A stretch of DNA of 64,000 nucleotides from an uncultured Prevotellaceae bacterium (GCA_964567855.1 CAZMOE010000008.1:4921-68920), one strand, 5' to 3'; shown: positions 20,365 through 45,710, counted from the first letter of the stretch. Numbers and translations are program-made. Notes: generated by a model from the sequence alone, not told the origin.

Positions 20365-23300
20365 TCAGCTTATCTCCCACTCATACATAAAGGTGCGCAA
20401 CGCCTGCACCCCCTGGTGGTTGATATCCAATGCCTCGACTTCGGCAAGATACTGCCGGGCCTTACGGACATCTCCTAACCCCAAAGAGCCTAAAGCCAGC
20501 ATATATTTACAATGAATCCGGTTCTTCCGGTCTAAAGAATCCTCCCAAATAAGCAGATCGGGCAAAGAGACGGCAAAATAATCCATCACCTGAGGCTCGA
20601 AAAGGTGCTGCTTTCCATAACCGACAAGACGATGGAACCGTCCGCGGGCCTCCTCTCCCCGCCCGAGGGCCAACAACGCCAGTCCCTGATAAAAAATCTT
20701 ATCGGGCTTCGCATCATTATAATACATGGCGGCCGCCGGTTCCTGCGGTCCTTCGATAGCACGCAGCCAGCAACGGTGCGCTTGTTCCTGTTCGTCCAGC
20801 AACTGATATGCGCACCCGAGGAAGTAATAAAAATCGTTCTCCTGAGCCCCGAAGAGCTTCCCCTCGCCCAGATGATGGGGATACTCCAGGCATTCATTCA
20901 AAAGGCTGATTGCCTGCTGGCATAATCCGGCAATAGAAGTATCGTTCCGGGTCCTGGATTGCGATTCTGCCCAACATCTGCGCCCCTCGGCCAGCAACAG
21001 TTTCGCCTTTTCCACACGACATATCTGGTATTGCGCCGGCACTTTGCCCTCACCGCCTTCCCAGGGATGGAATACATGACCGTCCAGCAACCTCATCGCA
21101 TCATCATAACGTCCTGTCTGATTCAGGAGAGTGATCTGCTCAAGCAGAAGATCATCCCGCCGGGCTACAAGATCGGGGAAACGTTCAAGCCGGGCCAACC
21201 GTTCCGAATGCGGACGCTGCACACGTTTATACAACTGGTCAAGTTCCATCAGGATACGGGCATCCGCAGGATCAAGGGCAAACGCTTTTTCCATGCAACG
21301 GATAGCCTCGTCCTCTCTGCCGCATTTATTGAAATAGGCCAGGGCCAAATTACGCCATACGGTGGGAAACGCTGCATCCGCAGCTCTGGAACGTTCCCAA
21401 TAGCTGATCGCCAGATCGTATTGACGCTTGTCATAATACAGGCAACCGAGATAATAGGACGCGCGGGCACTATCCGGACGAGCATTGATAGCAGCCTGCA
21501 AAGCAAGACAAGCATCCAGACTGTTGGGGAAACAATAATCCGGGGCGCAGGCCTCAGCCTCTTCATACCTGCCGAGGAAATAATAGGTCATCGGAGAACA
21601 GGCTTTCTCGTCGATGGCAAGCTGCCAGACGGCACGGGCTTCCCGCACGAGACCGGCATGCAGATAATCGAGCGCCAGCTCATCGTAATTATGGCTGCTG
21701 CCGCGCAAAAGTTGTTTGAGGGAAACAAGCAACTGCTCATCGCCGCACAGCAGATATTGCTCATAACGACAGGTGTAATTGAACAAATCGCACGCAAGCG
21801 ATTCCTCAATCAGACGGAGGGCCTCGTCCCGGCGCCCCATCAGGCGCAGAATAGCAACTTTCAACCCGCGGGCCTTATGATTATGCCAGTAGTTATGCAA
21901 ACAGCGGTCGATCTCGTCAAGCGCATCGGCCAACCGACGCTGTTTCACACTGATCTGTGCAGCCTCGAAGTAGCCCGCATCCGCCCAACCCTTATTCCAG
22001 GTAGATTTCCAGAATAACCGATAGGCTTCTTCATCCTTGCCCCGATATTTCAGGCAGAGAGCCAGATTGTAGAGAGGCTCACCGTCATACGGATTCGGGT
22101 TGCGTTTCTGTAACACCCTGACCGCCGTGCGCAAATAGGGCTCCGCCTTGTCGAAACGGCCCCGGCGGAGATACCACAACCCCATCGCATTGTTGCAACG
22201 GTAATCCGACGGATCCCGCCGCAGACCTTCTTCGTAATAATCGAGCGCGCTCCACGTGGCGTGGCGGTATTGCTCCAGATGGAGGCCGGTCAAATAAAGC
22301 TGTTCGACCGTCTTTATATCCTGTGGAAGAAGCGCCGCCTCGGCGGCATCGGGTATAGGACGTATCTCATCGGGTTCCGCATGCCAGACAAGGGGGGTAA
22401 TATAAGTGCCCAGCTGCCGTATCATGACAGTCAGGTCATCCATATCATGTGAGCCAATGACAATTTCACGGTCAAAGATCTCTTCGGGCGACATATCGCA
22501 TTCCGTGGCAAAACATTCATTTCCATCCGCATCAGTAATGGAAACCGAAAGGCGCTGGCGGCTGGTAACGAAAATCTGAAGACGAACGGCATGACCGCAA
22601 CCGCCATCCATACCATCGGAAGAGGCGCAAGAAGTGATGTTCATGATAACATCCCTGTTGGCCTGCTTCACCACACCCAGCTCACGATAAGGCATAAAGT
22701 ATTGGGTGAAAGTTTTCTCCTCATACGGCATCAGCCAGGAGAAGTCCGGCTGATTTTCGGTATAGACACCGGCCATCAACTCAATATAAGGGCCATCCTC
22801 ATCGGTAAGATTCCGGTCCCAAGCACGTCCGAAATCGCCGTTGCCCCAGGTCCACTGCTTCTTACCGGGACTGAAATGGTTGCTGGCCACATGCAACATG
22901 CCTGCACAGGTATCATTCTCATAACCGCCCTCAAAATTATACTTCGAATTGACGGCCATGTAGCTCGTCGGCACCTTGATGTTCTTATAATTGGAAATAT
23001 CGACCCCCGCGGAATAATCGACCTTGTAATAAGTGCCTGTGGCGATGGGGAAAGAAGATACCGCGCGCTTACCATGATCGAAAACCGCATTTATATCAGG
23101 CGGGAAGACGCTCTGATAATGATCGTTCACTGCCACGGCGGGATTGGCCCACCACAAAAACGTCTGAGGCAGATCGGTACGATTATAGAGCACCCCTCTG
23201 ATTTCAAGATAGGCGCATCCCGGACGCAGGGTAAAGCCGGCCATGCCCTTTTGACGGAACATCCGTTCCATTTCGCTGACCCACACCGTCACGCTACCGT

Positions 23301-23721: not shown

Positions 23722-23733
23722 ATCAGAATCATT

Positions 23734-25464
23734 TTAATCTTTAACCATTGTAAGCGTGACGTCGTCCACATGACAATAGGCACCGGCAGCGCCGGAGACC
23801 TCAAATCCGGCACGCAACCGGCCGCCCTCCAGCACAACCGACATCTCTACGGGTTGCCATTTTTCAGAAAGCGGAACCTCCACAGCCCCCAAATCATACG
23901 GCAATGCCGGTAATGTTTCTCCGGAAGCACCTCCCACGGGAATGCCATCGTTTACCTCCAACGAAGCAATCGATCCACCGGTCGGCAAAGCCACCTGCGA
24001 CGAGGCAAACATGACGCAGCGCACCGCTTCGCCGCCTCCCTTCACCATGGCACGCAGAAGATAGCGACCGTCAGGCAAAGGAACAGCAGCGGTCCCCTCC
24101 ACCCGTTGTGAGATACGACGACAGAAAGGCATGGATTCGTCCGCCACATTCAAGGACATCTTACCGATCACGTCGGCCTGATCCTCGGCACTATTGTGAC
24201 GATTGAGGCATGGCGAAAGCGAGTCCTCATGCGCCACGACCCGACCGGCGATAAACTCCGTATCCCATCCCGTCAGAAAAGCCTGACGTGGTTTGACCGG
24301 TTCGGGGATTATCCGACGGTCGGCATCGAAACTACCGTTCAAGATGTAGTTATTGTCGGCCGCCACACGCCAATCGCCTGTAGCAGAACAGAAATCCCAA
24401 GAAGAGAGAGAATTGAAAACCGGATTTTCATCTCTGTCGAACGAAACGGGAACCCATTGATTATAGCCCAAACCGTTATTGGCGAAATCTGCCCAGCGGT
24501 CACCGCAATAAATGACGGTCTCTTTCCCGCCAGCAGTGCGATGCGTATAAAAAAAGCCGGTCTGCGTAAGATGAGAAAAGTCTCTTTCACAATTGACGAA
24601 CTTCCGCATTTCGCCGACAGGTTCATAAGGACCATGAATGTCGGTCGACTTCAGAAAATAGGCATGAGAACAATCCCATCCCCACAAATCGGAGGCGCAG
24701 AGATAATAATGTCCTTTATATTTGAACATACAATTTCCCTCGCGGCCGGCACCTTGAAAAACCTGATGACAATCCAGAAGTCCGATGCTGTCATTCTCCA
24801 AAAGCCCGATCTCGGAAATATAGGTCCGGTTACGACCGCTACCCTTGGAATAGACCAAATAACCGCGGTTAGTGTCAGGATCGACAAAAACGGTCTGATC
24901 GCCGGTATTGGGAGTCCCACAATAAGGAGTCATATCCATACTTCTGTAATAGGAAAAGGGACCACGAGGCGAGTCGCTCACCGCGACAAGCACGGAGCCA
25001 TTGTGCTGCATCATGAGCACGTATTTTCCCGCAGCCTTGACGTAAGCGACTCCCATGCGCCCCAGCCAGCCGAGCGGCAACTGCCGATCGAGCAGCTCCT
25101 GACGGGTAATCGCATCGCCGGCAGCATGCCAATGAACAAGATCGTCGGAAACATAAATCGAAACCGATTCAAAAGTACAATGAGGATACTTCCGGCCATG
25201 ATTCTCCCGATACAATGCCGCCTCTCGGTACTTCATGCCGTACCAGAAATAGCGTTCCACTCCATCCGCGGGGTCCTCGTAACGAAAAATGCCTCCACCC
25301 TGACTGTAAAGCGGGATTCCCTCTGCCGTGTCCCAGAAAACATCGTTACGGATGTTATGATATTCCGCCGTTTCCGGAGCGGCCACACCCTTACAGGAAA
25401 AATTTCCCAACACCAGAGCGACCATGCCTAAAGCATACACCGCCACGGACGAATATTTTTTCAT
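23734..25464 (-). CDS. glycoside hydrolase family 43 lipoprotein with C-terminal beta-sandwich (CBM-like) domain
   Basis: Start trimmed to ATG 25464 (MKKYSS...; the track start is GTG). Lipobox LGNFSC. GH43-like blocks are GDQTVFVDPDTNRGYLVY, REGNCMFKYKGHYYLCAS and GDRWADF. Confidence 0.7.
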   Translation of the reverse strand: MKKYSSVAVYALGMVALVLGNFSCKGVAAPETAEYHNIRNDVFWDTAEGIPLYSQGGGIFRYEDPADGVERYFWYGMKYREAALYRENHGRKYPHCTFESVSIYVSDDLVHWHAAGDAITRQELLDRQLPLGWLGRMGVAYVKAAGKYVLMMQHNGSVLVAVSDSPRGPFSYYRSMDMTPYCGTPNTGDQTVFVDPDTNRGYLVYSKGSGRNRTYISEIGLLENDSIGLLDCHQVFQGAGREGNCMFKYKGHYYLCASDLWGWDCSHAYFLKSTDIHGPYEPVGEMRKFVNCERDFSHLTQTGFFYTHRTAGGKETVIYCGDRWADFANNGLGYNQWVPVSFDRDENPVFNSLSSWDFCSATGDWRVAADNNYILNGSFDADRRIIPEPVKPRQAFLTGWDTEFIAGRVVAHEDSLSPCLNRHNSAEDQADVIGKMSLNVADESMPFCRRISQRVEGTAAVPLPDGRYLLRAMVKGGGEAVRCVMFASSQVALPTGGSIASLEVNDGIPVGGASGETLPALPYDLGAVEVPLSEKWQPVEMSVVLEGGRLRAGFEVSGAAGAYCHVDDVTLTMVKD

Positions 25465-25481
25465 GAAATCCACAGTATATA

Positions 25482-27830
25482 TTATTGTTTCAAAATTTTT
25501 GAAGTACGCTCAACAATACGGATATCATCCAGGCTGAACATAACCCCACCGGCATCGGCTTCGGAGGCAAGCAGTTCCCGCTGGACAGGCTGAAGATAAA
25601 CGGGATACTCCCGGCCATAAGGTAGAATCTTGAGTTCGACACGCTTACCGACCAAATCGGCGACCCGCACCAGCATTTCCCGGCCATTCCAATAATTATC
25701 GGCAACAAGCCGACCGTCGGCATATACACGGGCGACATCTCCTTTATAATCGATGCGGAGGAAAAGAGCGTCGATCTGTTCCTGCGATTTGCTTTTCACC
25801 ATATCGGTCACATCGGAAAGATCCCACACGGCAGCCTGGGCGAAATCTGCCTCTACCGGCATCGTCGCCACTTTGGCGTTACCCATTTTCACCGTACGCA
25901 GACCCTTATGCGGCTGCACGGGGCGGGCTTTCATCCTCTTTCCGACGCTCCAAGTCTCCTCGATAAGCCTTCCATCTTCATTGTAGATGATTCCGGTACG
26001 GGAGAAAGCGACACCTTCTCTGACGGAGGTGCCTCCGGCAACGCCTGCGGCACCTCCCACTTTATAGGCGGTCATCGCCTTGTCGGGCGAAAGGATACAA
26101 ACCTCGATCTTACGGCCTGCGGCATTGACGACGGTAAAAGAGCGGTTGAGTTTAGGCGTATATTTTTTGCCGTCGATGCTGATCTCGGCCTGAATGCCTT
26201 CACAGGCGACGAGCCAGAGCTGCGGCACCTTGCCGGAAACCTTTGTAAAAAGCTGGGCGGAAGCCCAATCGATCTTCATGCCCTCAAAATCGATCCCGAA
26301 AGGCCAGACAAAACAGGCATCGGAAGGAACCGTCACCGGGACGGAGGGGAACTTTACCGTCTCGCCCTCTGTCGTGACAAGTTCGAACTGTACACCCTGC
26401 TTGGCAGTAAGCGGCATCATCCGCAGATAGTTATTGACAAAAAGGAAGCCGCTGCGACCGTCGGTGCGGACACTCCAGCGCAGGTGTTCATCCTTCCGGC
26501 CGTTCTCGCTATTGGTAGAAGGGAAAACCGGATCCATATCGCGCATCACTCCACCCCAATCCTGAAGCATCTGATGGAAAACGCGAGTGTTGTGATAAGA
26601 ATGATTCGTCTGTCCCATCTCTCCGAGCGGCGCCTGAAAGTCATAAGACTTGTAGCAGACGTCATTATGCGCCGTGCTTTTGGAATCCTGCATCTCTCCC
26701 ATCGAATGGGCGGCTCCGCCGGCACAGGTACTTTCCGGATTCGTTCCTCCGTGATACATATAATAACCGGGCAGATTCGATCCGCTGCCGACTTTGGTCA
26801 CGCAAAGGGCCAGTGCATCGCGGTCGAAAATATGAATACGGCGGTGATAGGCGGTCTGCATGCCTCCGCCCAATTCACAGGTAAAATAAGGATAAGCCAG
26901 ATCGGAACGCTCCATCTCCGTGCTCTGGTTACTGCCGAAAGTCTCGGTAGCGATATTTGCCGAAAGACGGGTCTGCTTGAATGCGAAAGCATCGGGATAA
27001 GCACCGGGCATGTCTTCAGCCTTACGTTCCCAAAAGCCGTCGGCATAATCGCCGTAAAGAGGAAGAATCTCGCCGAAGACCTCCCGGCCATTCAGTTTCG
27101 GCCAGCCTGTACGGGTATAGAACGGTAAATCATAGCCGATCTCCAAGGCCATCTTCTTCAAGGCCTGATAATAAGGCCACGGACCGCGGCATTCATTCTC
27201 CAGCTGCATTCCGATCACCGGGCCGCCGTCTTTCCACAGAAGTCCGCCAACCTGCTTGTAAATGTTTTCATAAAGCAGCCGCACCGCGGCCATAAAACCC
27301 GGAGCGAGACTGCGTAACTTGTACTGTTTTGGGTCTGCGATCGCCTTGTCGACAATCCATTCAGGGAAGCCGCCCTGATATACCTCGCCATGACAGAAAG
27401 GACCGACGCGAATAACCATCGGCATTCCGACTTCAGCGCAAGTTTCGATGAATTTACGAAGATTCCGGTTTCCGCTCCAGTTCCATACGTTCTCTTCCTC
27501 CTCATGATGAATCCAGAAAACATAAGTCGCCACCATGGTCACACCCCCGGCACGCATTTTAAGCAATTCCCGTTTCCAGTCTCTCTCCGGAACGCGGGCG
27601 TAATGAATTTCTCCCATCACGGGCATGACCGCCTCGCCCCCGATCAGAAAACCTTTGTTATCGACAGTGACCGCCGTACCGGCAGGATTCGCAGCAGTAC
27701 CGAACTGAAAGGTTCCGGCAGAACGGGGAAGCGGTTTTTCAAGCTGTAATCGGTAATCTTGTGCCAGCAAAGCGCTGCAGCAATAAAAGAAACCCGCAAC
27801 CGCCAGCAATATGGATCTGTTGTTTCGCAT
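25482..27830 (-). CDS. beta-galactosidase, glycoside hydrolase family 35
   Basis: Start trimmed to MRNNRSILLAVAG. GH35 signature GEIHYARVPERDWKRELLKMRAGGVTMVATYVFWIHHE...VGPFCHGEVYQGGFPEWI and acid/base region MQLENE. Confidence 0.88.
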   Translation of the reverse strand: MRNNRSILLAVAGFFYCCSALLAQDYRLQLEKPLPRSAGTFQFGTAANPAGTAVTVDNKGFLIGGEAVMPVMGEIHYARVPERDWKRELLKMRAGGVTMVATYVFWIHHEEEENVWNWSGNRNLRKFIETCAEVGMPMVIRVGPFCHGEVYQGGFPEWIVDKAIADPKQYKLRSLAPGFMAAVRLLYENIYKQVGGLLWKDGGPVIGMQLENECRGPWPYYQALKKMALEIGYDLPFYTRTGWPKLNGREVFGEILPLYGDYADGFWERKAEDMPGAYPDAFAFKQTRLSANIATETFGSNQSTEMERSDLAYPYFTCELGGGMQTAYHRRIHIFDRDALALCVTKVGSGSNLPGYYMYHGGTNPESTCAGGAAHSMGEMQDSKSTAHNDVCYKSYDFQAPLGEMGQTNHSYHNTRVFHQMLQDWGGVMRDMDPVFPSTNSENGRKDEHLRWSVRTDGRSGFLFVNNYLRMMPLTAKQGVQFELVTTEGETVKFPSVPVTVPSDACFVWPFGIDFEGMKIDWASAQLFTKVSGKVPQLWLVACEGIQAEISIDGKKYTPKLNRSFTVVNAAGRKIEVCILSPDKAMTAYKVGGAAGVAGGTSVREGVAFSRTGIIYNEDGRLIEETWSVGKRMKARPVQPHKGLRTVKMGNAKVATMPVEADFAQAAVWDLSDVTDMVKSKSQEQIDALFLRIDYKGDVARVYADGRLVADNYWNGREMLVRVADLVGKRVELKILPYGREYPVYLQPVQRELLASEADAGGVMFSLDDIRIVERTSKILKQ

Positions 27831-27909
27831 GACTGTTATCTTATTTTTTATTTGAAGAATTATTAATGACATATCACCTATTCCTGTGAAAAATCTTCGG
27901 TCCGGACGT

Positions 27910-29307
27910 TCATGCGGAATGAGTCAATTCCCGCTCCAGCTCCTCCAGAGAACGGCCTTTGGTTTCCGGCAACCGACGATAAAAGCAAAAGAACCCGCAG
28001 ATGCAAATCGCAGCATAAATCCAAAAGGTTCCGCTACTGCCGAAAGCCATATTCAGCGACGGGAAAGAGAACGTAAGGGTCGTACAGCCCATCCACAAAG
28101 CAAAGGTGCAGGTAGCCATTGCAATTCCACGCACCCGGTTGGGAAAGATCTCGGACAATAGTACCCAGGTGACCGGTCCCAACGACATGGCATAGCAGGC
28201 AATGGCAGCCACTACCAGCACAACCATGAAGAATCCCGTAATGTGAAAATAGTAGCAACTGCCCAGAATGAGATAAATCATTCCAAGACCACCGGCACCG
28301 AACAACATCAGCGAGCGGCGGCCCCAGCGGTCGACCGTATAAAGCGCGACGATCGTGAAAATCACATTCGCAATACCGGTAATGACAATATTGAAAAGGA
28401 CATCACCGACCTGATAGCCGGCAGCCGAAAATATTTCCTGTGCATAGTTGAAAATAACATTCGTGCCGCACCACTGCTGAAATACGGCAATGACAATTCC
28501 CAAAACCAGAACCGCTGCATAACGGCGGGAGAATAGTTCTCTCAGTCCCCCCCTTTCCTGTCGCGCGTCGGTATCGGCAACCTCATGAATATGAGCCAGG
28601 CAGGCATCGGCATAATCTCCGCCTCCCAAGCGGCTCAATGTCGCCCTGGCGCGAGCGGTATATCCCTTCATGGCCTGCCAGCGCGGACTCTCCGGGATAC
28701 AGAATGCAAGCAGGAGAAAGAGCGCCGCCGGCAGGGCTTCGGCCCAGAACATATAGCGCCACCCCTGCTGCCCGTTCCAAGAGGCCAGAATATCGGCGGC
28801 AGTGAAACCCGCCGGGACCGGATCGGCCAATTGCCAGTTGACGATCTGCGCCCCCAGAATGCCGAGCACGATAGTCATCTGATTCAAAGAAACCAACTTG
28901 CCGCGAATCTCCGCCGGAGAAATTTCGGCGATATACATCGGCGACAAGGCCGAAGCAATACCGATACCGATGCCTCCCACAAAACGGGCGATATTAAACA
29001 TCGTAAAATCATCGTACCAGCCGGTGGCTACAGCCGATACCGTAAAGAGAACGGCCGATACAATGAGCAACGGTTTACGTCCATAACGATCGGAAAGCGC
29101 TCCGGCCACCATGGCACCTATCAGGCAGCCCACCAAAGCGGTCGACATGGCCACGCCCTGCCAGAACGGAGAGTCGGAAATGCTGAAAAAAAGTTCGTAA
29201 AAAGGTTTCGCCCCGCCGATCACGACCCAGTCATAGCCGAAAAGCAAACCTCCCATCGCCGAAACGAGACAAATAAAATAGATGAAGCCACGATTATAAG
29301 TTTTCAT
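27910..29307 (-). CDS. MFS sugar porter (XylE/AraE-like sugar:H+ symporter)
   Basis: Start trimmed to MKTYNRGF. Sugar-porter motifs GGLLFGYD, SDRYGRKPLL, PESPRW and PETKGRSLEE. 12 TM-like segments. Confidence 0.9.
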   Translation of the reverse strand: MKTYNRGFIYFICLVSAMGGLLFGYDWVVIGGAKPFYELFFSISDSPFWQGVAMSTALVGCLIGAMVAGALSDRYGRKPLLIVSAVLFTVSAVATGWYDDFTMFNIARFVGGIGIGIASALSPMYIAEISPAEIRGKLVSLNQMTIVLGILGAQIVNWQLADPVPAGFTAADILASWNGQQGWRYMFWAEALPAALFLLLAFCIPESPRWQAMKGYTARARATLSRLGGGDYADACLAHIHEVADTDARQERGGLRELFSRRYAAVLVLGIVIAVFQQWCGTNVIFNYAQEIFSAAGYQVGDVLFNIVITGIANVIFTIVALYTVDRWGRRSLMLFGAGGLGMIYLILGSCYYFHITGFFMVVLVVAAIACYAMSLGPVTWVLLSEIFPNRVRGIAMATCTFALWMGCTTLTFSFPSLNMAFGSSGTFWIYAAICICGFFCFYRRLPETKGRSLEELERELTHSA

Positions 29308-29338
29308 AGTATATAGAATAAATATGTGTTCATGGTGG

Positions 29339-29346
29339 CAAAAGTA
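29339..29346 (-). promoter_or_regulatory. sigma-A -7 motif (TActTTTG) for the MFS-GH35-GH43-DUF5107 unit
   Basis: The plus strand reads caaaagta, 32 nt upstream of ATG 29307. Confidence 0.45.
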
Positions 29347-29406
29347 CAAAGAAAAATCGACACCGCCGGTGGATAATCGTGCTATTTCATGTGGACAATC
29401 GTCCCA

Positions 29407-30309: not shown

Positions 30310-30329
30310 GGCATACTGATTTATCGGGA

Positions 30330-30337
30330 CAAAGATA
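30330..30337 (-). promoter_or_regulatory. sigma-A -7 motif (TAtcTTTG) for the AraC regulator
   Basis: The plus strand reads caaagata, 21 nt upstream of ATG 30309. Confidence 0.45.
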
Positions 30338-36809: not shown

Positions 36810-36880
36810 CAGAAGTAAGTTTTGAATTAAATAATAGTTCCGCCCCAGACGAAAGCCGGGCTTCAACCAGAGATAAACGC

Positions 36881-39800
36881 TCAATGGTTACCGGAACACC
36901 GGCCACCGGTCTCCGCCACAATCCAGAAGGCCGCGGTCAGGCCAGAAGGCAACAACGCATCATCCGGATGCACAACGGAAGGATAAGCATAAGTGACACG
37001 CCCGGTTTCCGAAAGCGAGCAATCATAAATCATTCTGTTGACCAATGAATTGGCCACATGAATCTCTACTTTATTCATGCCGGGAACCAGAAAATCGGTC
37101 ACGTCGACCATTTCCGGAGAACACCAGACGACACCGGCGTCGCAGCCGTTTATATATACATGCGCACCGAAACAAGATGTTTCCAATCCTAAATACATCC
37201 GCCCATGAATGGTGTCGACCGTTACCTCTTTCCGATAAACCGCAGTGCCGGAATAATAGCGTACTGAGGGATCGGTATGTGTCGTCCAATCGATAAGGCT
37301 ATCGAACAGAATTTCGCCGGCTCCTCCTGCCCGTTCATCAAAACAGACGCTCCAGGCCCCGTCTATAGGAATGCGGGAGCTCCCTGCCGCAGGCCGTTCA
37401 AAGGCGGGAAGAGAATCATTCCGATCGGAAATAACGATGAAAGAAGATTCCCGAGGATGGAAATCGAGATCCAAGGTGACGGAACGGCCGTCGGCCCGGA
37501 TAACAGGCAAAGCAAATCGTTCTCCGGTCACGCTATTCCACCATTGCGCATAACGGCCCGCCGCTTGAAAAGTAAACCGGTTGTGTTCGGCTGTATCTTT
37601 GTGATTGTCGATAAAGAAAACATCCGCATCACTAAGCCGGCGACGGGAGAAATAAAGCCGGTTGCTGTGCGTATCACCAACAGCCAGAGAAACATCGGCG
37701 GATATACCCGCACAAGCGACAACCTCAGACAGCGGCATCCCCCAATATACCCTTCCGCGACCATATTTTTTGTAGCCGGCCGGAGTATTGTCCCACATGG
37801 CGTCCACCAATGCCCGGTAAGCCGCATCCTGCCCCACATCGGCCGCCGATCCGGAACCGATAGGACGTCCGCCATACACTTTGGCACCTTTTTCTACCAA
37901 ACGGGCCATGGCCTGCAATGCCTTGAACGTAATATCGCCATTGCGAGGCAAAACCATAAGCTCATATTGCACTCCGTCGGGCAGAACAATCCTACCGTCG
38001 GAAACATCCATACGCGAAACCAACGCGTCGGTGGTGAACGCATCGAAATCGAAACCTCCGGGAATTTCCGGCAAGCGATAAGTCAGGATCTTGACCGGAG
38101 CATTTTCTCCCAAATAAATGCAAAGCTGCGCGGCCGGTTTTCCCTGACGCAGAACATAGGCATTACGCGCCTGATAATCCCAGAACGGACGGCTGTAAGG
38201 CCAAAACGTATTATTGCGATGAATGCAGTAATGCCGCCCGCCGCCGGTATTGCCAGGATAACGATCTGCCGCCCAAGGCTGATAGGCAGATGCACAGACA
38301 ACGAACTCATTGATGCCGTAGGCATAGGCATAATCGGCCAATTGTTTCAGATCGGACAGCGATGCGGAGAATTTCGCATCGGTATAGGCCTCGGCCGAAG
38401 CAACGGTCTTACCGTAAAGATGCGCGGCGGAGGCACTCTCCTTGATATCGTAATTACCCTCGGGATGGATGGCCCAAAATTCACCTTGCGGCTTGTCAAC
38501 CTTACTCTTGGCAAGAATAGGATCGCCTGGGATACAGAGTGCATTGCCGATGGCCTGGGCCGTAAATGTCAGACCCCGGTCATGGCAGAGACGACTGATA
38601 GTTCCGTAATAATTGTCGGCCATCAGATCGGCAATATTACGGCGAACGTCGAAAAGAATCCGCTCGGAGAGAGCCGTGCTATCGACCACATACCCCATCA
38701 TCACCGGCAGATAAGGAATAAGATCATATCCACGCCTTGCTTCAAATTCCCCGGCGAAGCTATCCGTCCAATTCTGCGATCCGGCCTCGTGGCTATCCAT
38801 CGCGACACCGACCAGACAACCGCTTTTGCTGACCAAAAGCGAATCATGAATACGCGCCACATAATTTTTCCATTGGACTTCGGCTGCCTGACGGGATAAC
38901 TTGTCGCATTCCAGCCCCATCAGGTTCCTGCGACCGTGTTTGATTTTCTTACCGGTCGGGACTGCGTAAAAGCGCATGATTTTCCACCGGCCAGCAGGTA
39001 CCTCCCAGCGGAGCATTCCTATTGTATCCATCCGGTCGGTCAGGTTCACGATGTCGCGCGATGCTATCACTTCGCCGGCAACATATCCCGGTTGTCGGCA
39101 CGGTTCTATATATTCGGCATGCAGACCCACTTTTTCCTCCCACTGGTCTACCCGCGCCGAAGAATGCAATACAACCCTGCCCAATTGCAATGCCGTATTG
39201 GAGATACTGTCATGCCACCAGTCGTGAAGATTCAGCCGGTAACAGGCGGCTGTTTCTGCATCGAAAGCAATGGTTTTTACATTAATTCCGCCATGAGCTG
39301 TGTAGATGGGACGGAGATCGCAGACCTTTCTGTAATTCACACCGTCGTCAGAGGCCTCTAAGCTTCCAGGCGAAGGCAATTCAAAGAAACCGGTTCCCAC
39401 AAATGTATCGGAAGGCGGACCCGGAACATTCGTTGCGCTGGTAGTCGCCTTACCACGGGGTTTCATCTCATAAGAAACGGCCCGGGCTGTGAACGGCCGG
39501 TCAAAATCAAGATTCACATAAATATTACCATGACGCAAAGAGGCCTCTTTCTGCAACACAGCAACGGCACCCTCCTCCCCCAATATGCGGGTAAGATCCT
39601 TTATTTCTCCGGCATTGGTCGAGACACAGATTTTCCGGCAGGAAAAATCCTCATCCGATTCGCCGACAGGGAAAGCCAGCACCGCTATATCCTTATAATA
39701 TCCGAGGTTGGCACGAGGTGCCGGCAACATTCCGGCAAATTCCCGGCCGCCGGCCACAATAAGTTCCTCCGCCTGGAGCCGCTTCATAGCGAGGGCCGGA

Positions 39801-40216
39801 GTAATCCAGGGGCCGCCGGCAACAAAACCGTTGGAAACATGCACCTCGAAGCTCAGCCCCAGCCGCTCGGCCTCTTCTGCCGAAAAACGCAGCATCTGCC
39901 ACCACTCATCGCAAAAGGCGGGAAAGGCATGTTCCATTTTGCCATGTGTCTGGTCATAATAAACAACCCCTCCGACACCGGCACTCCTGAAAGCCTCCAG
40001 ATCGGCGGTAATCCCTTCACGCGTGGTCTCAGTCTCTCCATGAAACCACCAGACTTTGGTACGGGTACTGTCCTGCGGATGTTCAAAACCGTATAAGGCC
40101 TCCTCGAAACCGGCATCCCTCCCGGAGCGGCGGGAATCACAGGACGAAAAGAGAAGCAGACACAGCCACACTGCGGCAAAAAGCATCTTGAAGATAATAC
40201 GGGGTATATTTCTCAT
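36881..40216 (-). CDS. large glycoside hydrolase lipoprotein, GH106-like alpha-L-rhamnosidase (tentative)
   Basis: 1111 aa. Lipobox LLFSSC. The N-terminal block [37 protein letters not shown] and the C-terminal galactose-binding-like block [14 protein letters not shown]...[10 protein letters not shown] resemble what I recall of Glyco_hydro_106 proteins. The family call is unverified. Confidence 0.55.
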
Positions 40217-40290
40217 AAGAACAATAATATTTTCAATCGTTTAATATGTAGAAGGCGAAGATATCCGACCCTGGAAAATATATAAGGCAA

Positions 40291-40298
40291 CAAATATA
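40291..40298 (-). promoter_or_regulatory. sigma-A -7 motif (TAtaTTTG) for the GH106-unknown-GH78-GH28 unit
   Basis: The plus strand reads caaatata, 75 nt upstream of ATG 40216. Confidence 0.4.
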
Positions 40299-40391
40299 CG
40301 TATTTTTCGATAAACAGAGGGATTTCCGGCGTCAATCTCCAAAGCAGCGTAGCCGTTACAGATGGATAACGCCGGAATCCCCCCACCGTCA

Positions 40392-42818
40392 TCAATGATT
40401 TGCCTGAGAAGTGGTCTTCAATTTCAACACACGCCCCTTCATGCCATCGCAAGAGACCCGAATCTGAACCTCACCGGCCTCATGAGTGGCCCGTAAAACA
40501 GCGAGGGCAAAGCCTCTATGTAGCTGTCCGGTCGTTCCGGCAAAAGTTTCACCGGTATAATGATCGTCATTATCGAGTGCCACGAGGCGGGCAGCACCAC
40601 TCACGTCGACGGTAACCGTTCCCGTGGCCGTGGGGACGGCATTCCCTTTGTTGTCAACGGCAAAAATTTTTATGTATTGAAGATCCATACCGTCGGCGGT
40701 CCATCCGGCCGGACTTTCGGCTACCAATTGAATGGCAGAGGCCCTTCCCGTAGTGCGTAATTCATGACGTGCTACCTCTGTGCCCCCTGTGCGGGCGATG
40801 GCAACGATCCTCCCACCATTATCATACGGCACGTCATGCCAGTAAATCATGTTACGCTTGCGGATATCGCTCCGGTCATTTTTCCGGGTACCCATCGACT
40901 GGCCGTTGACCCACAGCTCGACCTCGTCGGCGTTGGTAAAGGTGAAAAGCTGCTGCACGGAACCGGTGGTACGGTTCCAATGAGACGACAAACGCAATCC
41001 GCCGACGGTGACATCGTTCCAGTCGACATTCTCGGCGGCTTCGTCGACCACGCCGATACGAACTACAGGTTCTGCGGAAAACGCGCTTTTCAGGAGATAG
41101 GCCTGCGGGTAAGGCTGAAGCGCATGGCTGAAAAATGAATAATTCCAACCTTTCTTCGGCCAGCCGTTCGATTCGCCCCAGTATTCGATCGCACCCCAAT
41201 AGGCCAGTCCCACCATACGGTCGCGATCCATACCGAAATAAGGAGCCAACAATTCATTGGAGGTAGCCTCACTCTGATAAACGATCAGGTCCGGCTTATA
41301 CTCGAGGTATTTCGGATAGGCTTCGAACTGGTAATTGTAGCTCGCAATATCGGTGACAAGGGAAAGTTCCGGCGGAGTGAAATTACCGTTAAAACCTCGG
41401 TCTTTACGGTTGATCGCTCCGGCACGGGCGGGATACATGGCCACGGTAGTTTTGCGAGTCGGATCATAGCGTTTGAGCAGGGTATCGAAAATCCGATAGG
41501 TCGTCACGCCCCAGTCTCCGGTCGGATAGCCCGCCAGATCTTCCCGCATCTGCAACTCGTTACCCAGACTCCAAAGAATGACCGATGGATGATTTCTATC
41601 GCGCTTCACCCACTCCGTTATCAGCTCCGGCCACATCTGCATAAACGGTCTGCGGCCACCCCAATAGGATTCATCGCTCCATTTATCGACCAATTCGTCA
41701 ACCACCAGGATTCCATATCTGTCGGCCAGGGCATAAAAGGTTTCAGAATAGGGATTATGAGAACAGCGGATATGGTTGAATCCGAAAGCCTTCATCTGCC
41801 TGAATTGCCGCTCGATGGATCGCTCAAAGGCCGCGACTCCCATGGCTCCGAGGTCCTGATGATTGGCAATACCTTGCAGAAAAATTTTCTCGCCATTGAG
41901 TTTAAGACCGAATTTCGGTGAATATTCTACCGAACGGATACCGAACGTTTCAGTTATCCGGTCTATCTCCCGTCCCTGATGCACCAGCCGGACCTCGGCG
42001 GTATAAAGATTCGGTGCATCGCATGACCACAACTGCGGAGTTGCCACCACAGCCGCAGGTAGGGGCATTTCGATGTTTTTTAACTTCGTTCTCGTGACGG
42101 CGGGAACACTCGTTTCTGCCACCGGACTTCCATCGGGCGCGAAAATACGGGCTTCAATGCCGACATCGCCCCGTTTATGGCGCAATCCTTCCACTTCGAC
42201 CTGAATACAAACCTCTGCCTGCCGGGAACTGACCGTTGGGGTCGTGATGAAAACTCCATGGCGGGCAATCGCGGTAGAATCTTTCACGACCAGATGGACA
42301 TTCCTGTACAAACCGCCCCCGGTGTACCAACGCGATCCTCCCTTTTTGCCAGTCGAGGCACATACGGCCACGACATTGTCACCCTCAAAATCCAACAGCG
42401 AAGTGATATCCACCTCCATGCCGAGATAACCGTAATCGGTACTGGCCACTTTCTGCCCGTTCACCCAGACATCCCCGAGTAGCATAATACCTTCAAAGTC
42501 CAGCAAGACCCGTCCGCCCTGCCATGAGGAATCGGCTTTAAAGGTTTTGCGATACCAGCCTTTTCCCATAGCCTTAAAGCCTCTGGCCCCGCCGGCAGAT
42601 TCCGTCCACGGCTGTTCGATCTGAAAGTCATGGGGCAAATCCAGCATGCGCCAGCCGGCGTCATCATAGTCTCTTGCGAAAGCATGTTCCGCGTCGCCGG
42701 CATGAAACTTCCAGTCGAAATTAAATAACTGAACCGAACGAGAGCGAGCGGCTGTTGCCTGCACCATCATCCAGAAAGCGACAAGCATCCACGACATTAT
42801 AAACGACTTCTTTGTCAT
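40392..42818 (-). CDS. glycoside hydrolase family 2 (beta-galactosidase/beta-glucuronidase-type)
   Basis: Signal peptide present. GH2 blocks FNFDWKFHAGD...DDAGWRMLDLPHDF, NHIRCSHNPYSETFYALADRYGILVVDE and NHPSVILWSLGNE. Confidence 0.9.
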   Translation of the reverse strand: MTKKSFIMSWMLVAFWMMVQATAARSRSVQLFNFDWKFHAGDAEHAFARDYDDAGWRMLDLPHDFQIEQPWTESAGGARGFKAMGKGWYRKTFKADSSWQGGRVLLDFEGIMLLGDVWVNGQKVASTDYGYLGMEVDITSLLDFEGDNVVAVCASTGKKGGSRWYTGGGLYRNVHLVVKDSTAIARHGVFITTPTVSSRQAEVCIQVEVEGLRHKRGDVGIEARIFAPDGSPVAETSVPAVTRTKLKNIEMPLPAAVVATPQLWSCDAPNLYTAEVRLVHQGREIDRITETFGIRSVEYSPKFGLKLNGEKIFLQGIANHQDLGAMGVAAFERSIERQFRQMKAFGFNHIRCSHNPYSETFYALADRYGILVVDELVDKWSDESYWGGRRPFMQMWPELITEWVKRDRNHPSVILWSLGNELQMREDLAGYPTGDWGVTTYRIFDTLLKRYDPTRKTTVAMYPARAGAINRKDRGFNGNFTPPELSLVTDIASYNYQFEAYPKYLEYKPDLIVYQSEATSNELLAPYFGMDRDRMVGLAYWGAIEYWGESNGWPKKGWNYSFFSHALQPYPQAYLLKSAFSAEPVVRIGVVDEAAENVDWNDVTVGGLRLSSHWNRTTGSVQQLFTFTNADEVELWVNGQSMGTRKNDRSDIRKRNMIYWHDVPYDNGGRIVAIARTGGTEVARHELRTTGRASAIQLVAESPAGWTADGMDLQYIKIFAVDNKGNAVPTATGTVTVDVSGAARLVALDNDDHYTGETFAGTTGQLHRGFALAVLRATHEAGEVQIRVSCDGMKGRVLKLKTTSQANH

Positions 42819-42844
42819 GATATTTATATTTTATTTTGCGTGGA

Positions 42845-42852
42845 CAAAAGTA
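42845..42852 (-). promoter_or_regulatory. sigma-A -7 motif (TActTTTG) for the GH2 gene
   Basis: The plus strand reads caaaagta, 27 nt upstream of ATG 42818. Confidence 0.45.
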
Positions 42853-42888
42853 GGCAATAGAGTAAGGAGCTCCGGCAAAGTATTCACA

Positions 42889-42920
42889 AAAGAGGTCGAA
42901 AAGTGATTTTTCGACCTCTT
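42889..42920 (-). terminator. terminator of the propeller/AraC regulator gene
   Basis: aaagaggtcgaaaa gtga ttttcgacctcttt: perfect 14-bp stem, 4-nt loop, 13 nt after the stop at 42933. Confidence 0.65.
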
Positions 42921-42932
42921 TGTGGCAATTTT

Positions 42933-45710
42933 TCAACCTTTTCCCGCATCCTGGGCATATTCTGTCGGGCCTTTTCCAAATTCTTTTCTGAAGCATGAAG
43001 AGAAATACTTCGGATCATTATAACCTACGCGAACCGCCAACTCCACGATGCGAATATCCGGCTGCTCTTCCAGAATACGGGCCGCGGCCTTGAGGCGCAT
43101 GATCCGGACAAAGGAAAGCGGATTCATGCCCGACAATTCCTTCATGCGATTGTAAAGAGTGCTCCGGCTCATGGACATCTCCTCTGCAAAACGATTGACA
43201 TCGAAGTCCGCGTCAGACAAATGGAGGTTCACACATTCCGCAGCAGCCTGCAGGAAGCGTTTATCTTCATCCGCCGATCCGTCGACCGGCAACACGATAT
43301 CCAAAGAAAGATTTTTCCCGACAAAAGCCGCAGCCCGTTTCTGTCTGTGTCGGATCAAAAGAAAAATACCTGCTGCCAATGATAAAGCAATGACAAGCAC
43401 CAGTCCAAAAACTTTTATCCATAGGCCGAAAGCTCCTTTTATGGTCAATTCCAACTGTATCGGTGGCCCCCAAACTCCATTTTCATCCGTGGCCTTGAGT
43501 TCGAAGGTGTATGAACCGGCCGGCAAATCCGAGTATGCCGCTTTCCGATGGGCGGCATCGACATGACGCCACCCGTCATCGTATCCATGAAGACGGTAAG
43601 CGTATTGAATGATTTTCGGACGACGGAATTCAAGAGAGGCAAAGCATATCTCCGCACTGGTCTCGCCGATCTGGATATCGGTAAAGACCAATGGCGCGGC
43701 TGAAGACTGCGAAATCATATCGGAAGGGGAAAAATAGATCAGTCCTTTGCCACAACCGAAATACAGTATTCCATCATGGCGGCAGGAAGCATTCGGATAG
43801 AAAAAGTTATCGATCAAACCATCGGCGATAGTGAATACGCGCAAGCCAGTCGGTGTTCCCTCGGAAGAAAGGGATAAACGAACAAGCCCGGCGTTAGTTC
43901 CTATCCAAAGATTGCCGTAATCGTCCGCCTCAATACAAGCCGCCATATCACCGGGTAAATTATAATCGGAATGAACGGAATAAAATCGGTCGGCGACGGT
44001 ATCGTACCGGCAAAGCCCCCCGCCATCCATGCCGAGCCAAAAAGTACCATCCGATGTGCCGGTGAAAAAACAAAGGGGCATTCCTATGGGTAAACTGCCA
44101 TCGGTAAAACAATATTGCCGACAAACGATAGAATCCTGGGAGAACGCTCCTCCTGTTACTCTGATTACACCAAAGGCTGTGGTGGCCAACCACAGGGCCC
44201 CGTTTCGATCTTCTGCGATCGTAATGATCTCTGTAGAAAGTAAAGAGTCGAGACCAAATAATCTAAACTCCCGCCCATCGGCATAACGGACACCGAGACC
44301 ACGGTCCGTTCCGACCCACTGATTTCCGCAGTAATCTTCATGAAGAGCATAAACATGGTTACTGGGTAAAAAATCATCCGTTTCACGCCGATATGTCGCG
44401 ATTTTTCTACCATCGCGAACACGGATAATTCCCCATCCGACAAAAGGCACAAAAATTTCAGTGCCTGCACGATTCGAAGAAAGATGCTGGATATTTTGAG
44501 AATGACGGATCACCGAATACTCGCCATCTTTATAATATTCTAAATTTTTACCAACAGCGACGTAGCACCCGCCGGCACTATCGATACATATACTTTGCAC
44601 ATGTTCGGGTGCTGCAACGGCATTTCCTTGCAAATCCATCTTCCTAAAGAACAAATCGGGAGCCTTCTCGATAATAAAAATACCGTTTCCTCGCTCGGTA
44701 GAAATCCACAAACTGCCATTGCGGCTCATTGATAAGTCTGAAATATCCCTGATAGAAGGAACCGGACCATATAATGCATCTTCCGGTGCAGAAAATATTC
44801 CTTCCTTGTCCAGATTCATGCATAGCAGATTCTCCAAAGTCCCTATCCATAAAGTATGAGTAGCCGGATCCTCAGCTAAAGAGACGACAGGAACCGGAGA
44901 GGAAGAAACCGGCGGATTTTCAGGCGTTGTCAAATAACGCTCCACGATTTCCAATTGCCGATAAACGGAAGAGGTCTCTACTTTCAGCAATCCGCTGCCA
45001 TCGGTCGCCATCCACATGCCACCCCTACTATCTTCCAGAATATCAAGTACCGTTTCCCGGGAAGAAAAAGCCCGTTGCCGCACAAATTCTTTAGTGAATG
45101 GCGAATAACGGAATAAACCCTGCCGCCACGTACCGATCAATATATCTCCGCATTTATCTTCATAAATACTTTGGACATTCATCACCTCCGGAACCTCTTC
45201 TGCCAATTTTCCGGAAGAAAGCACAATCAGACTATCTCCTATGAAATCAAAACGAGCCAGTCGCCGGATAGTACCGACGTACAATTGTCCGGTGCGGGAA
45301 AAACACAGACTATTGACACGTTGCTTGTCGACATCAGGCAGTCGGTAATGCCGCACATGTTTGCGATTCCGGTCCAGTCGCAGCAGACCGTTCTGGGTTC
45401 CGATCCACAGATTCCTGGCAGAATCTTCGGCCAGACAGATGATATCATTGCTATACGCCGCAGACGGAACTTCTTCTATGGTCTTGAAAGGCCGTACCTC
45501 GTACCCGTCATAGCGGTAAAGGCCATAAAATGTCGCAATCCACATAAAACCTTCCGCATCCTGCAAGGTCTGACGCACCATCCCGTTCGGAAGACCCTCT
45601 GCTGTCGTAAACTGAGAGAAACGAAAAGTTGTATTCTCGGCCCCTCTTACACTAAGCAGGACCACAAAAAATATCATTACCCAAAAATAAATCCGGAAAT
45701 GCCGCCTCAT
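42933..45710 (-). CDS. membrane-tethered regulator: periplasmic two-component-regulator propeller repeats + Y_Y_Y domain + single TM + AraC-type HTH (no kinase or receiver domain)
   Basis: 925 aa with a signal/anchor N-terminus. Repeated ...G.LWIGT..GL..Y/F propeller blades. Y_Y_Y block IQYAYRLHGYDDGWRHV...GSYTFELKATDENGVW. TM helix LWIKVFGLVLVIALSLAAGIFLLI. About 35 aa later comes the AraC HTH (FAEEMSMSRSTLYNRMKELSGMNPLSFVRIMRLKAAA..., GYNDPKYFSSCFRKEFG). Confidence 0.8.
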   Translation of the reverse strand: MRRHFRIYFWVMIFFVVLLSVRGAENTTFRFSQFTTAEGLPNGMVRQTLQDAEGFMWIATFYGLYRYDGYEVRPFKTIEEVPSAAYSNDIICLAEDSARNLWIGTQNGLLRLDRNRKHVRHYRLPDVDKQRVNSLCFSRTGQLYVGTIRRLARFDFIGDSLIVLSSGKLAEEVPEVMNVQSIYEDKCGDILIGTWRQGLFRYSPFTKEFVRQRAFSSRETVLDILEDSRGGMWMATDGSGLLKVETSSVYRQLEIVERYLTTPENPPVSSSPVPVVSLAEDPATHTLWIGTLENLLCMNLDKEGIFSAPEDALYGPVPSIRDISDLSMSRNGSLWISTERGNGIFIIEKAPDLFFRKMDLQGNAVAAPEHVQSICIDSAGGCYVAVGKNLEYYKDGEYSVIRHSQNIQHLSSNRAGTEIFVPFVGWGIIRVRDGRKIATYRRETDDFLPSNHVYALHEDYCGNQWVGTDRGLGVRYADGREFRLFGLDSLLSTEIITIAEDRNGALWLATTAFGVIRVTGGAFSQDSIVCRQYCFTDGSLPIGMPLCFFTGTSDGTFWLGMDGGGLCRYDTVADRFYSVHSDYNLPGDMAACIEADDYGNLWIGTNAGLVRLSLSSEGTPTGLRVFTIADGLIDNFFYPNASCRHDGILYFGCGKGLIYFSPSDMISQSSAAPLVFTDIQIGETSAEICFASLEFRRPKIIQYAYRLHGYDDGWRHVDAAHRKAAYSDLPAGSYTFELKATDENGVWGPPIQLELTIKGAFGLWIKVFGLVLVIALSLAAGIFLLIRHRQKRAAAFVGKNLSLDIVLPVDGSADEDKRFLQAAAECVNLHLSDADFDVNRFAEEMSMSRSTLYNRMKELSGMNPLSFVRIMRLKAAARILEEQPDIRIVELAVRVGYNDPKYFSSCFRKEFGKGPTEYAQDAGKG

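Follow-up and report, generated by a model that had tools for sequence, protein, structure and literature searches.

Genes of the cluster and their relatives

The stretch of DNA analysed here (64,000 nucleotides of an uncultured Prevotellaceae bacterium, GCA_964567855.1 CAZMOE010000008.1:4921-68920; below called the window) carries a cluster of 11 genes for carbohydrate-active enzymes (CAZymes), a sugar porter and regulators. According to open reading frame (ORF) calls, the genes lie head-to-tail on the minus strand in an unbroken run from position 45710 to 20365, with gaps of -4 to 175 bp between them. In the order of transcription, and with domains assigned by Pfam for all but PL27, they encode a Reg_prop/Y_Y_Y/HTH_AraC regulator, GH2, GH106, PL27, GH78, GH28, a cupin-AraC regulator, an MFS porter, GH35, GH43 and a DUF5107 protein with TPR repeats. 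An earlier note, written from the DNA alone, had counted twelve genes, and even its own five transcription units sum to 11; the families it had named (GH2, GH106, GH78, GH28, GH35, GH43, MFS, AraC, DUF5107) all have Pfam matches. The identical cluster is present in several public assemblies, and five gene starts were taken from the gene calls of these assemblies (slightly shorter and ATG-initiated). For PL27, the ORF of 713 amino acids that begins at a TTG had no exact database match, whereas the gene of 688 amino acids is recorded.

The gene between GH106 and GH78, which the earlier note had left as an unknown, looks hypothetical in Pfam, where its product has a faint match to DUF5695 alone; it is a homologue of PL27 lyases. 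With phmmer against the PDB, it matches 5NO8/5NOK (BACCELL_00875) with an E-value of 2.6e-200 and 670 bits, and the alignment runs end to end (residues 26-706 versus 6-688). Among 77 aligned members of the family, drawn from many phyla, 48 columns show a conservation of at least 95%, and the protein keeps all of them; the retained family-conserved residues, which are putatively in the active site, include Y165, H179, Y213, R228, R363, R465, Y467, H612 and H630. Judged from these residues, the protein is very probably active as an enzyme. Three PL27 enzymes have been characterised (BACCELL_00875, BT0263 and BACFIN_07013). They combine a beta-sandwich at the N-terminus with an (alpha/alpha)6 barrel, and from gum arabic they free rhamnose through beta-elimination at the linkage L-rhamnose-alpha-1,4-D-glucuronate (Rha-alpha1,4-GlcA); the sole PL27 activity known so far is directed at the Rha-alpha1,4-GlcA caps that arabinogalactan proteins carry (PMC8377490). 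With a PL27 gene in the middle of the main operon, the premise of a lyase-free, purely hydrolytic pathway, on which the earlier note had built, is removed, and the locus is no example of a lyase-free pectin pathway.

The cluster does not have the adjacent susC-like/susD-like pair that defines a canonical polysaccharide utilisation locus (PUL) of Bacteroidota. Pfam searches with nearly all non-nested ORFs of the window of at least 250 amino acids returned no TonB-receptor, Plug, SusD, GH88/105 or carbohydrate esterase match. When real SusC, SusD, TonB-receptor, GH88, CE8 and GH53 proteins from related loci were used as tblastn queries against the six-frame translation of the window, nothing was found below an E-value of 0.03, and for SusC and SusD nothing below 0.35. 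Matching contigs extend the window by 4.3 kb on the left and 10 kb on the right; these extensions contain no SusC/SusD, TonB-receptor or GH88/105 gene either, and a CE8 gene on the right is their one esterase. At least 20 kb to each side of the cluster are thus free of SusC/SusD. The absences that the note had listed thus stand for SusC/SusD, GH105 and esterases within the window, but not for polysaccharide lyases. An endo-acting family was also not recognised in the cluster by Pfam or tblastn.

The cluster is organised in five transcription units, as the earlier note had proposed. On the minus strand, exactly five gene starts (regulator, GH2, GH106, AraC and MFS) are preceded, at a distance of 28-82 nt, by TAnnTTTG, the -7 motif of Bacteroidota, and a scan of the same strand found it upstream of none of the remaining cluster genes. 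Seven other copies are distributed over about 25 kb of coding sequence, and about 0.24 copies are expected by chance in the about 880 bp of intergenic sequence. Together with the hairpins listed in Table 1, the motifs support the units [regulator], [GH2], [GH106/PL27/GH78/GH28], [AraC] and [MFS/GH35/GH43/DUF5107] and likewise a Bacteroidota origin of the DNA. A LeuRS comparison gave no named match, with 84% as the best identity outside its own cluster; hints at the taxonomy are the names Xylanibacter and Prevotella among the relatives of the DUF5107 protein at about 70% identity and a Sangeribacter GH78 at 55%.

Table 1. Positions of genes, promoter motifs and hairpins, counted from the first nucleotide of the window
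Feature	Position	Strand	Remarks
One-component membrane regulator	42933..45710	-	own TAnnTTTG motif and terminator; Pfam, hydropathy
GH2, beta-galactosidase-like	40392..42818	-	signal peptide; monocistronic
GH106 alpha-L-rhamnosidase	36881..40216	-	first gene of four-gene operon; lipoprotein-type signal LLLFSSC-D
PL27 homologue, predicted L-rhamnose-alpha-1,4-D-glucuronate lyase	34743..36809	-	688 amino acids from MKKIILF; signal peptide
GH78 alpha-L-rhamnosidase	32033..34732	-	signal peptide; five Pfam GH78 domains
GH28, exo-alpha-galacturonidase-like	30371..32017	-	signal peptide; last gene of GH106 operon
Cytoplasmic AraC-family regulator with cupin sugar-binding domain	29407..30309	-	300 amino acids; own promoter motif; Pfam AraC_binding and HTH_AraC
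MFS sugar porter (Sugar_tr), XylE-like	27910..29307	-	465 amino acids; first gene of second operon
GH35, beta-galactosidase-like, divergent	25482..27830	-	signal peptide
GH43, GH43_24-like, putative exo-beta-1,3-galactanase	23734..25464	-	lipoprotein-type signal LGNFSC-K
DUF5107 (residues about 1-450) with TPR solenoid of about 650 residues	20365..23721	-	1118 residues; last gene of second operon
TAnnTTTG -7 motif, regulator	45768..45775	-	motif scan
TAnnTTTG -7 motif, GH2	42845..42852	-	motif scan
TAnnTTTG -7 motif, GH106	40291..40298	-	motif scan
TAnnTTTG -7 motif, AraC	30330..30337	-	motif scan
TAnnTTTG -7 motif, MFS porter	29339..29346	-	motif scan
Terminator-like hairpin with T-run, 3' of regulator gene	42885..42918	-	-15.9 kcal/mol
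Long hairpin without clean T-run, 3' of GH2	40319..40381	-	-33.1 kcal/mol
Terminator-like hairpin with T-run, 3' of DUF5107, end of cluster	20271..20320	-	-29.3 kcal/mol

The operon of the PL27 homologue also encodes three hydrolases. The GH106 protein matches PF17132 with an E-value of 3.9e-167 (558 bits, family cut-off 29) and, in the PDB, 5MQM (BT0986, E 1.3e-120) and 6Q2F (E 1.4e-106); its closest solved relative, BT0986, is an enzyme of rhamnogalacturonan-II (RG-II) degradation. On the NCBIfam equivalog model of BT4145, an enzyme for rhamnogalacturonan-I (RG-I), it reaches 232 bits and remains below the cut-off of 1300. The catalytic (alpha/alpha)6 domain of the GH78 protein is recognised by Pfam with an E-value of 5.7e-98, and its PDB matches are 6I60 (E 5e-138) and 3W5M (E 2e-117). 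The GH28 protein (PF00295, 66.7 bits, cut-off 22.9) has intact GDD286, GHG320 and RFK motifs and is nearest to exo-galacturonidases: these are the PDB entries 5OLP (E 3.6e-54) and 3JUR, the exo-polygalacturonase of Thermotoga (E 4.4e-53), and the NCBIfam model of the BT4155-type galacturonidase (223 bits, cut-off 800). On the models of the RG-I rhamnogalacturonidases BT4153 and BT4146 it scores 111 bits (cut-off 650) and 99 bits (cut-off 500). No cluster enzyme reaches the NCBIfam equivalog cut-off of any Bacteroides thetaiotaomicron counterpart.

The remaining three enzymes resemble enzymes for galactan. GH2 has the Pfam domain order N, Ig, TIM, DUF4982 and C5, and its best PDB matches are GH2 enzymes of the beta-galactosidase type; the gene call in the matching contigs is 801 amino acids long and starts at 42797. 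Its NCBIfam scores are 457 bits for GalB and 441 bits for GalA (cut-off 900) and 143-205 bits for beta-glucuronidase models, all below the equivalog cut-offs; with these scores, GH2 is unlikely to be a beta-glucuronidase, a function otherwise missing from the cluster. GH35 is above the Pfam family cut-off (E 6.6e-50, 171 bits), its N-terminal part alone matches GH35 beta-galactosidases in the PDB (E about 1e-25), and it is 43% identical to the GH35 next to the MFS and DUF5107 genes of Xylanibacter muris. GH43 (56 bits in Pfam) had been considered an arabinan-trimming enzyme in the earlier note, but all seven of its PDB relatives (3VSF, 6EUG, 7BYS, 5FLW, 6EUF and others) are GH43_24 exo-beta-1,3-galactanases, to which it is weakly similar (E 4.5e-14 to 7.8e-9). 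The subfamily GH43_24 contains exo-beta-1,3-galactanases only, and these attack the backbone of arabinogalactan proteins (PMC8406133).

By eye and by hydropathy, signal-like N-terminal segments are present on seven of the seven enzymes (GH43, GH35, GH28, GH78, PL27, GH106 and GH2), consistent with the export signals that the earlier note had seen on all hydrolases. GH43 and GH106 have lipoprotein-type boxes (GNFSC and LFSSC, respectively); in neither is the lipid-modified cysteine followed by an acidic stretch, and both lipoproteins are predicted to be periplasmic. The DUF5107/TPR protein, which is not a hydrolase, has no signal peptide and no hydrophobic segment in its sequence and hydropathy profile, and is therefore predicted to be cytoplasmic.

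PL27 genes are widespread: a scan of the GTDB species representatives identified 78 loci, with a best identity of 51%, in Bacteroidota, Verrucomicrobiota, Lentisphaerota, Firmicutes, Actinobacteria, spirochaetes and enterobacteria, Streptomyces and Bifidobacterium among them. At this identity, the source species of the window is not one of the representatives. Synteny of the whole cluster around these 78 PL27 homologues was rejected: a single locus, from a metagenome-assembled genome of Sangeribacter (L004), shares the set of regulator, PL27, GH78 and GH2. There, PL27 and GH78 form, in this order, one secreted protein of 1609 residues, encoded by a single ORF with no internal signal peptide (L004:4511-9340); a Reg_prop-AraC regulator gene precedes this ORF and a GH2 gene follows it. 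The GH78 of the window shares 55% identity with the corresponding half of the fusion. The fusion speaks for a common substrate of PL27 and this GH78. If they have one, a functional pair of PL27 and GH78, fused in Muribaculaceae, would imply a rhamnose linkage on the PL27 substrate that is so far undescribed, and the pair is a lead worth following. Two other Bacteroidales loci are informative: L001 has the order Reg_prop/Y_Y_Y/AraC, PL27, GH43, GH43, and L006 (L006:8451-16299) has an arabinogalactan-type set of GH30, PL27, GDSL/GH43 and GH115 that looks like a kit for arabinogalactan side chains. No SusC/SusD was found in the DNA examined around the PL27 genes of L001, L004 and L006.

A sister lineage (L093/L094; Logan SRR13490892, contig 22050) has 80-87% nucleotide identity to the window and the gene order MiaB, PL27, GH78, GH106, AraC, MFS, GH35, GH43, DUF5107. 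Its cluster lacks the sensor regulator, GH2 and GH28, GH106 has been relocated behind GH78, and PL27 is split over three reading frames, perhaps as a pseudogene or because of an assembly error. This gene set indicates that the removal of rhamnose and the trimming of galactan are the stable core of the cluster and that GH28 is dispensable.

Porter module and regulators

The MFS protein is a sugar porter (Pfam Sugar_tr, E 2.3e-109) that exceeds the cut-off of the NCBIfam sugar-porter subfamily (359 bits, cut-off 238) and stays below that of the XylE model (395 bits, cut-off 608); monosaccharide uptake by an MFS porter, as assumed in the earlier note, thus has its gene in the cluster. The DUF5107/TPR protein (Pfam DUF5107 with E 1.8e-56, and TPR families) has hundreds of relatives in Bacteroidales that are about 70% identical to it from end to end; those with names come from Xylanibacter muris and Prevotella, and the N-terminal DUF5107 domain is nearly invariant among these relatives. 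The two genes occur as a pair in five further loci. As one place was sampled twice (L088 and L091), the loci amount to four distinct places, and in every one of them a cupin-AraC gene lies within a few kb of the pair. In the three loci that were measured, identities to the proteins of the window are 65-79% for MFS, 69-70% for DUF5107 and 36-39% for AraC.

The neighbours of the pair vary. In X. muris (L086) they are GH78 and GH35, with a GH88 gene about 5 kb upstream of the pair; in L088/L091 they are GH95 and a GalM-type epimerase, with SusC-like genes at a distance of 7 kb; in L090 they are mostly housekeeping genes; and in L092 the pair is inside a canonical PUL of the galactan type, with GH53, SusC, SusD, an esterase and GH35. 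All these loci have the same orthologous MFS, DUF5107/TPR and cupin-AraC genes as the window; it is in the window that GH35 and GH43 sit between MFS and DUF5107 and that a rhamnose-decapping operon lies upstream, whereas elsewhere the pair is found alone or beside GH78/GH35, GH95/GalM or a GH53 SusC/SusD PUL.

A relative of the DUF5107 domain has been solved (PDB 5CD6, BDI_1685). We modelled the N-terminal domain with AlphaFold from an alignment that combines the clade of the window protein with the clade of 5CD6 (pLDDT 76.6, pTM 0.82). Foldseek with this model returned 5CD6 first, followed by GalM, YeaD and hexose-6-phosphate mutarotases with E-values of 1e-10 to 1e-7 and target-normalised TM scores of 0.55-0.68; the predicted model has the beta-sandwich fold of mutarotases. 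Five residues (H124, H216, H277, E150 and E152) are invariant across both clades, and Pfam gives no Aldose_epim match for the protein. The C-terminal 650 residues or so are genuine TPR repeats; this strong match of the helical part disfavours the idea that the protein is an enzyme composed of a beta-sandwich and an (alpha/alpha)6 barrel. In the literature searched, no published function was found for DUF5107, and the domain is mentioned in a single, unrelated paper.

On the basis of the model, the DUF5107/TPR protein may be a cytoplasmic sugar-binding or mutarotase-like partner of the MFS porter. Galactose would be the likeliest sugar of the porter, since GH35, GH53 and GalM recur among the neighbours. 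We tentatively suggest that AraC, MFS and DUF5107/TPR form a widespread cytoplasmic module of Bacteroidales (Prevotellaceae-like), in which DUF5107/TPR might process or sense an imported monosaccharide, perhaps galactose; this would be the first functional assignment for DUF5107, and a mutarotase-like partner of an MFS porter is a second lead from this locus.

The cluster has two regulators of different type. The first consists of a signal or anchor segment (residues 5-23), a periplasmic sensor of about 730 residues with the repeats of a Reg_prop beta-propeller and a Y_Y_Y domain, a transmembrane helix (768-786) and an HTH_AraC domain (842-920). Pfam finds no HisKA, HATPase or receiver domain in it, and only about 55 residues separate the transmembrane helix from the HTH domain: by its predicted domains, the protein is a one-component relative of the hybrid two-component systems (HTCS) and not an HTCS itself. 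Homologous regulators stand beside PL27 at L001:1556-3409 (with Y_Y_Y detected) and L004:2351-4465, so that an HTCS-type sensor joined by one transmembrane helix to an AraC domain adjoins PL27 genes in three lineages; this regulator type is a further item worth following. The second regulator, the cupin-AraC protein, belongs to the porter module: in other genomes, orthologues that are 36-39% identical to it are found with the MFS-DUF5107 pair.

A predicted substrate and its alternatives

We consider it somewhat more probable than otherwise that the cluster is a SusC/SusD-less periplasmic kit for the exo-trimming of type II arabinogalactan oligosaccharides (arabinogalactan-protein, gum-arabic type), from galactan side chains and backbone with rhamnose and uronate caps, possibly with attached pectic fragments. 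Arabinogalactan is suggested by the PL27 homologue, as the activity of this family is known only on Rha-alpha1,4-GlcA caps, by the likeness of GH43 to GH43_24, by the beta-galactosidase-like GH35 and GH2, by the arabinogalactan-type neighbourhoods of PL27 in other Bacteroidales (L006, L001) and by the sister lineage, which keeps the core for rhamnose and galactan. Small or already-imported oligosaccharides are the most plausible substrate, as the earlier note had thought, because the enzymes are exported and of exo-acting families, there is no recognisable surface endo-enzyme, and an MFS porter is encoded. Low-molecular substrates of this kind exist: arabinogalactan oligosaccharides of low degree of polymerisation, released by keystone Bacteroides, feed other species (PMC8406133).

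We infer the substrate, the order of the steps, the sugar of the porter and the role of DUF5107 as follows. The membrane sensor-AraC and the cytoplasmic cupin-AraC would control the five transcription units. The caps would be stripped by the products of the first operon (GH106, PL27, GH78 and GH28): PL27 would take terminal L-rhamnose off Rha-alpha1,4-GlcA by beta-elimination, GH78 and GH106 would hydrolyse other alpha-L-rhamnosides, and GH28 would remove terminal alpha-galacturonate, where present. GH2, GH35 and the GH43_24-like enzyme could then shorten the beta-galactan from its ends. The MFS porter would import one of the released monosaccharides, most likely galactose, and the cytoplasmic DUF5107/TPR protein, with its mutarotase-like fold, might bind or interconvert the imported sugar.

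All enzyme families of the cluster are already known, and so are clusters without SusC/SusD. With the Bacteroides PULs for arabinogalactan proteins (BT0262-BT0290 and BT3674-BT3687, the BACCELL_00875 locus and PUL5 of B. plebeius), the cluster shares a predicted Rha-alpha1,4-GlcA lyase (PL27, as BT0263 and BACCELL_00875), beta-galactosidase-like GH35 and GH2 and, by prediction, the principle of periplasmic exo-trimming; its GH43 would correspond to the exo-beta-1,3-galactanase of the GH43_24 type. Unlike these PULs, it has no SusC/SusD, no surface GH16/GH30 endo-galactanase and no GH105, GH145, GH154 or arabinofuranosidase; it adds GH106, GH78, GH28 and the AraC-MFS-DUF5107 module, and a one-component sensor-AraC takes the place of the hybrid two-component system. 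The gene composition of the arabinogalactan-protein loci of B. thetaiotaomicron is reportedly that given by Cartmell et al. 2018 and Munoz-Munoz et al. 2017.

CAZymes that are not part of PULs and complement them have been documented in Prevotellaceae, for example in Segatella copri (PMC12704710). There, and by prediction here, CAZymes outside SusC/SusD loci finish oligosaccharides in the periplasm or cytoplasm, but the published work covers enzymes for beta-mannan and beta-glucan, while the present case is another gene set, in an 11-gene cluster with its own regulators. The finding would mean that uncultured gut Bacteroidales assemble SusC/SusD-less trimming kits around a conserved porter module and reshuffle them between close relatives, and it bears on predicting which species scavenge the oligosaccharides of arabinogalactan or gum arabic that keystone degraders release.

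Several points weigh against an arabinogalactan substrate. The PL27 homologue is, in an alignment judged by eye, about half identical to the nearest characterised enzyme and its specificity could differ, all the more as the characterised members of the family are three only; the similarity of GH43 to GH43_24 is weak (E about 1e-14). Neither GH88/GH105 nor a clear beta-glucuronidase was found in the cluster or the window by Pfam, NCBIfam or tblastn, so that the product of PL27 cannot be finished by this locus, and no alpha-L-arabinofuranosidase is evident in the cluster. With no SusC/SusD, the cluster has no candidate for the route across the outer membrane. Arabinogalactan proteins are normally free of galacturonate, and GH28 is thus unexplained by such a substrate. 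For GH106 and GH78, we know of no documented role on arabinogalactan-protein glycans.

The gaps in the pathway would be closed if the cluster were one half of a split PUL, with the cognate SusC/SusD, a surface endo-galactanase and GH105 encoded elsewhere in the genome and co-regulated; the absence of these genes would then be a matter of gene position and not of mechanism. This is a serious possibility, if short of an even chance, and it is compatible with arabinogalactan as the substrate as well as with the next two alternatives. In a related bacterium (L092), the orthologous MFS-DUF5107 pair is part of a canonical PUL that has SusC/SusD, GH53 and GH35, and in L088 and L091 it is 7 kb from SusC-like genes, and the GH88/105 step must be encoded somewhere, as by the GH88 gene about 5 kb upstream of the pair in X. 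muris. Against a split PUL, the DNA next to the cluster contains no SusC/SusD over at least 20 kb to the left and to the right.

The cluster could alternatively be a general scavenging kit for rhamnose-capped material with no single cognate polymer, acting on fragments of RG-II, RG-I, arabinogalactan proteins, gums and perhaps flavonoid rhamnosides made available by other gut bacteria. Such breadth would fit the three rhamnose-releasing enzymes, accompanied by exo-galactosidases and a galacturonidase, the RG-II enzyme BT0986 as closest solved relative of GH106, and the two separate regulators, which suggest more than one signal; it would also fit the lack of SusC/SusD, of an endo-enzyme and of a uronate-finishing enzyme. 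Gene content is mosaic between the sister lineages (GH28, GH2 and the regulator present or absent, GH106 relocated), and the PL27 homologues of the 78 other genomes do not have the full architecture around them. One shared glycan is nevertheless favoured by the PL27-GH78 fusion and the stable core of PL27, GH78, GH106, GH35 and GH43. We therefore regard an unspecialised kit as unlikely; it overlaps heavily with the arabinogalactan kit and differs from it mainly in substrate specificity.

The explanation put forward in the earlier note, a lyase-free hydrolytic exo-pathway for rhamnogalacturonan, is less likely again. The RG-I backbone would be degraded by alternating action of GH106/GH78 and GH28, and GH2, GH35 and GH43 would trim galactan and arabinan side chains. 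Such an alternating route is real: B. thetaiotaomicron finishes RG-I oligosaccharides with the GH106 enzyme BT4145 and GH28 enzymes (PMC8002723). GH106, GH78 and GH28 are in one operon here, GH28 has intact catalytic motifs and its best NCBIfam match is BT4155, an enzyme of the RG-I PUL, and a CE8 pectinesterase gene lies outside the window, 1-3 kb to its right. However, PL27 sits between GH106 and GH78, and the pathway is hence not lyase-free. GH28 scores 223 of the required 800 bits on the BT4155 model and 99-111 bits on the models for RG-I rhamnogalacturonidases, and GH106 reaches 232 bits where the BT4145 model requires 1300. The sister lineage does without GH28 yet has GH106, GH78 and PL27; GH43 resembles enzymes for a galactan backbone and not for arabinan, and the cluster has neither an acetyl esterase nor GH105. 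The comparison with the RG-I PUL of B. thetaiotaomicron (BT4145-BT4183, with periplasmic GH106 BT4145 and GH28 BT4146/4149/4153/4155) gives the same picture: GH106, GH28, GH2 and GH35 are shared, but the cluster is without PL9, PL11, PL26, GH105, esterase and SusC/SusD, does not reach the equivalog cut-offs and carries PL27 and the GH43_24-like enzyme instead. As primary substrate, rhamnogalacturonan is thus weaker than arabinogalactan-protein, which the note had named as its fallback, because of the specificity of PL27, the likeness of GH43 to GH43_24, the low equivalog scores of GH28 and GH106 and the sister lineage without GH28.

A non-plant glycan with linkages between rhamnose and uronate (a bacterial capsule, an exopolysaccharide or an ulvan-like algal polymer) is very improbable as the substrate: PL27 is widespread outside gut Bacteroidota and only three members are characterised, but the GH43_24-like enzyme, GH35, GH2 and GH28, together with the GH30, GH115, GH53 and GH95 of related neighbourhoods, are typical plant-cell-wall sets, and no carbohydrate sulfatase lies inside the cluster (the Sulfatase-family protein at 17303-19309 is beyond the terminator).

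Surroundings of the cluster

By Pfam, the flanks of the cluster are housekeeping genes, with an S4-domain protein and a membrane protein of the Sulfatase family on the left and a MiaB-like enzyme and FtsY on the right. The Sulfatase-family protein and the S4-domain protein were considered as members of the cluster and rejected, as both are beyond the terminator at 20271-20320; the S4-domain gene is also on the opposite strand. The CE8 gene to the right of the window (L084:8380-10155) encodes a protein of 591 residues with a pectinesterase and an AmiA-like domain; it has housekeeping genes as neighbours and is separated from the cluster by about 19.5 kb.

Further to the left, positions 3739-14531 of the window encode an OEP/HlyD/ABC ATPase set followed by three tandem permeases of the MacB/FtsX type, of about 780 residues each. 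After these permeases comes a gene of the choloylglycine (bile-salt) hydrolase family (14602-15675), a hint that the habitat is the gut. In all 2-kb bins the GC skew is negative, from about -0.002 in the first bin down to -0.2 and independently of gene strand; this uniformly negative skew suggests that the whole 64-kb window is on one replichore.

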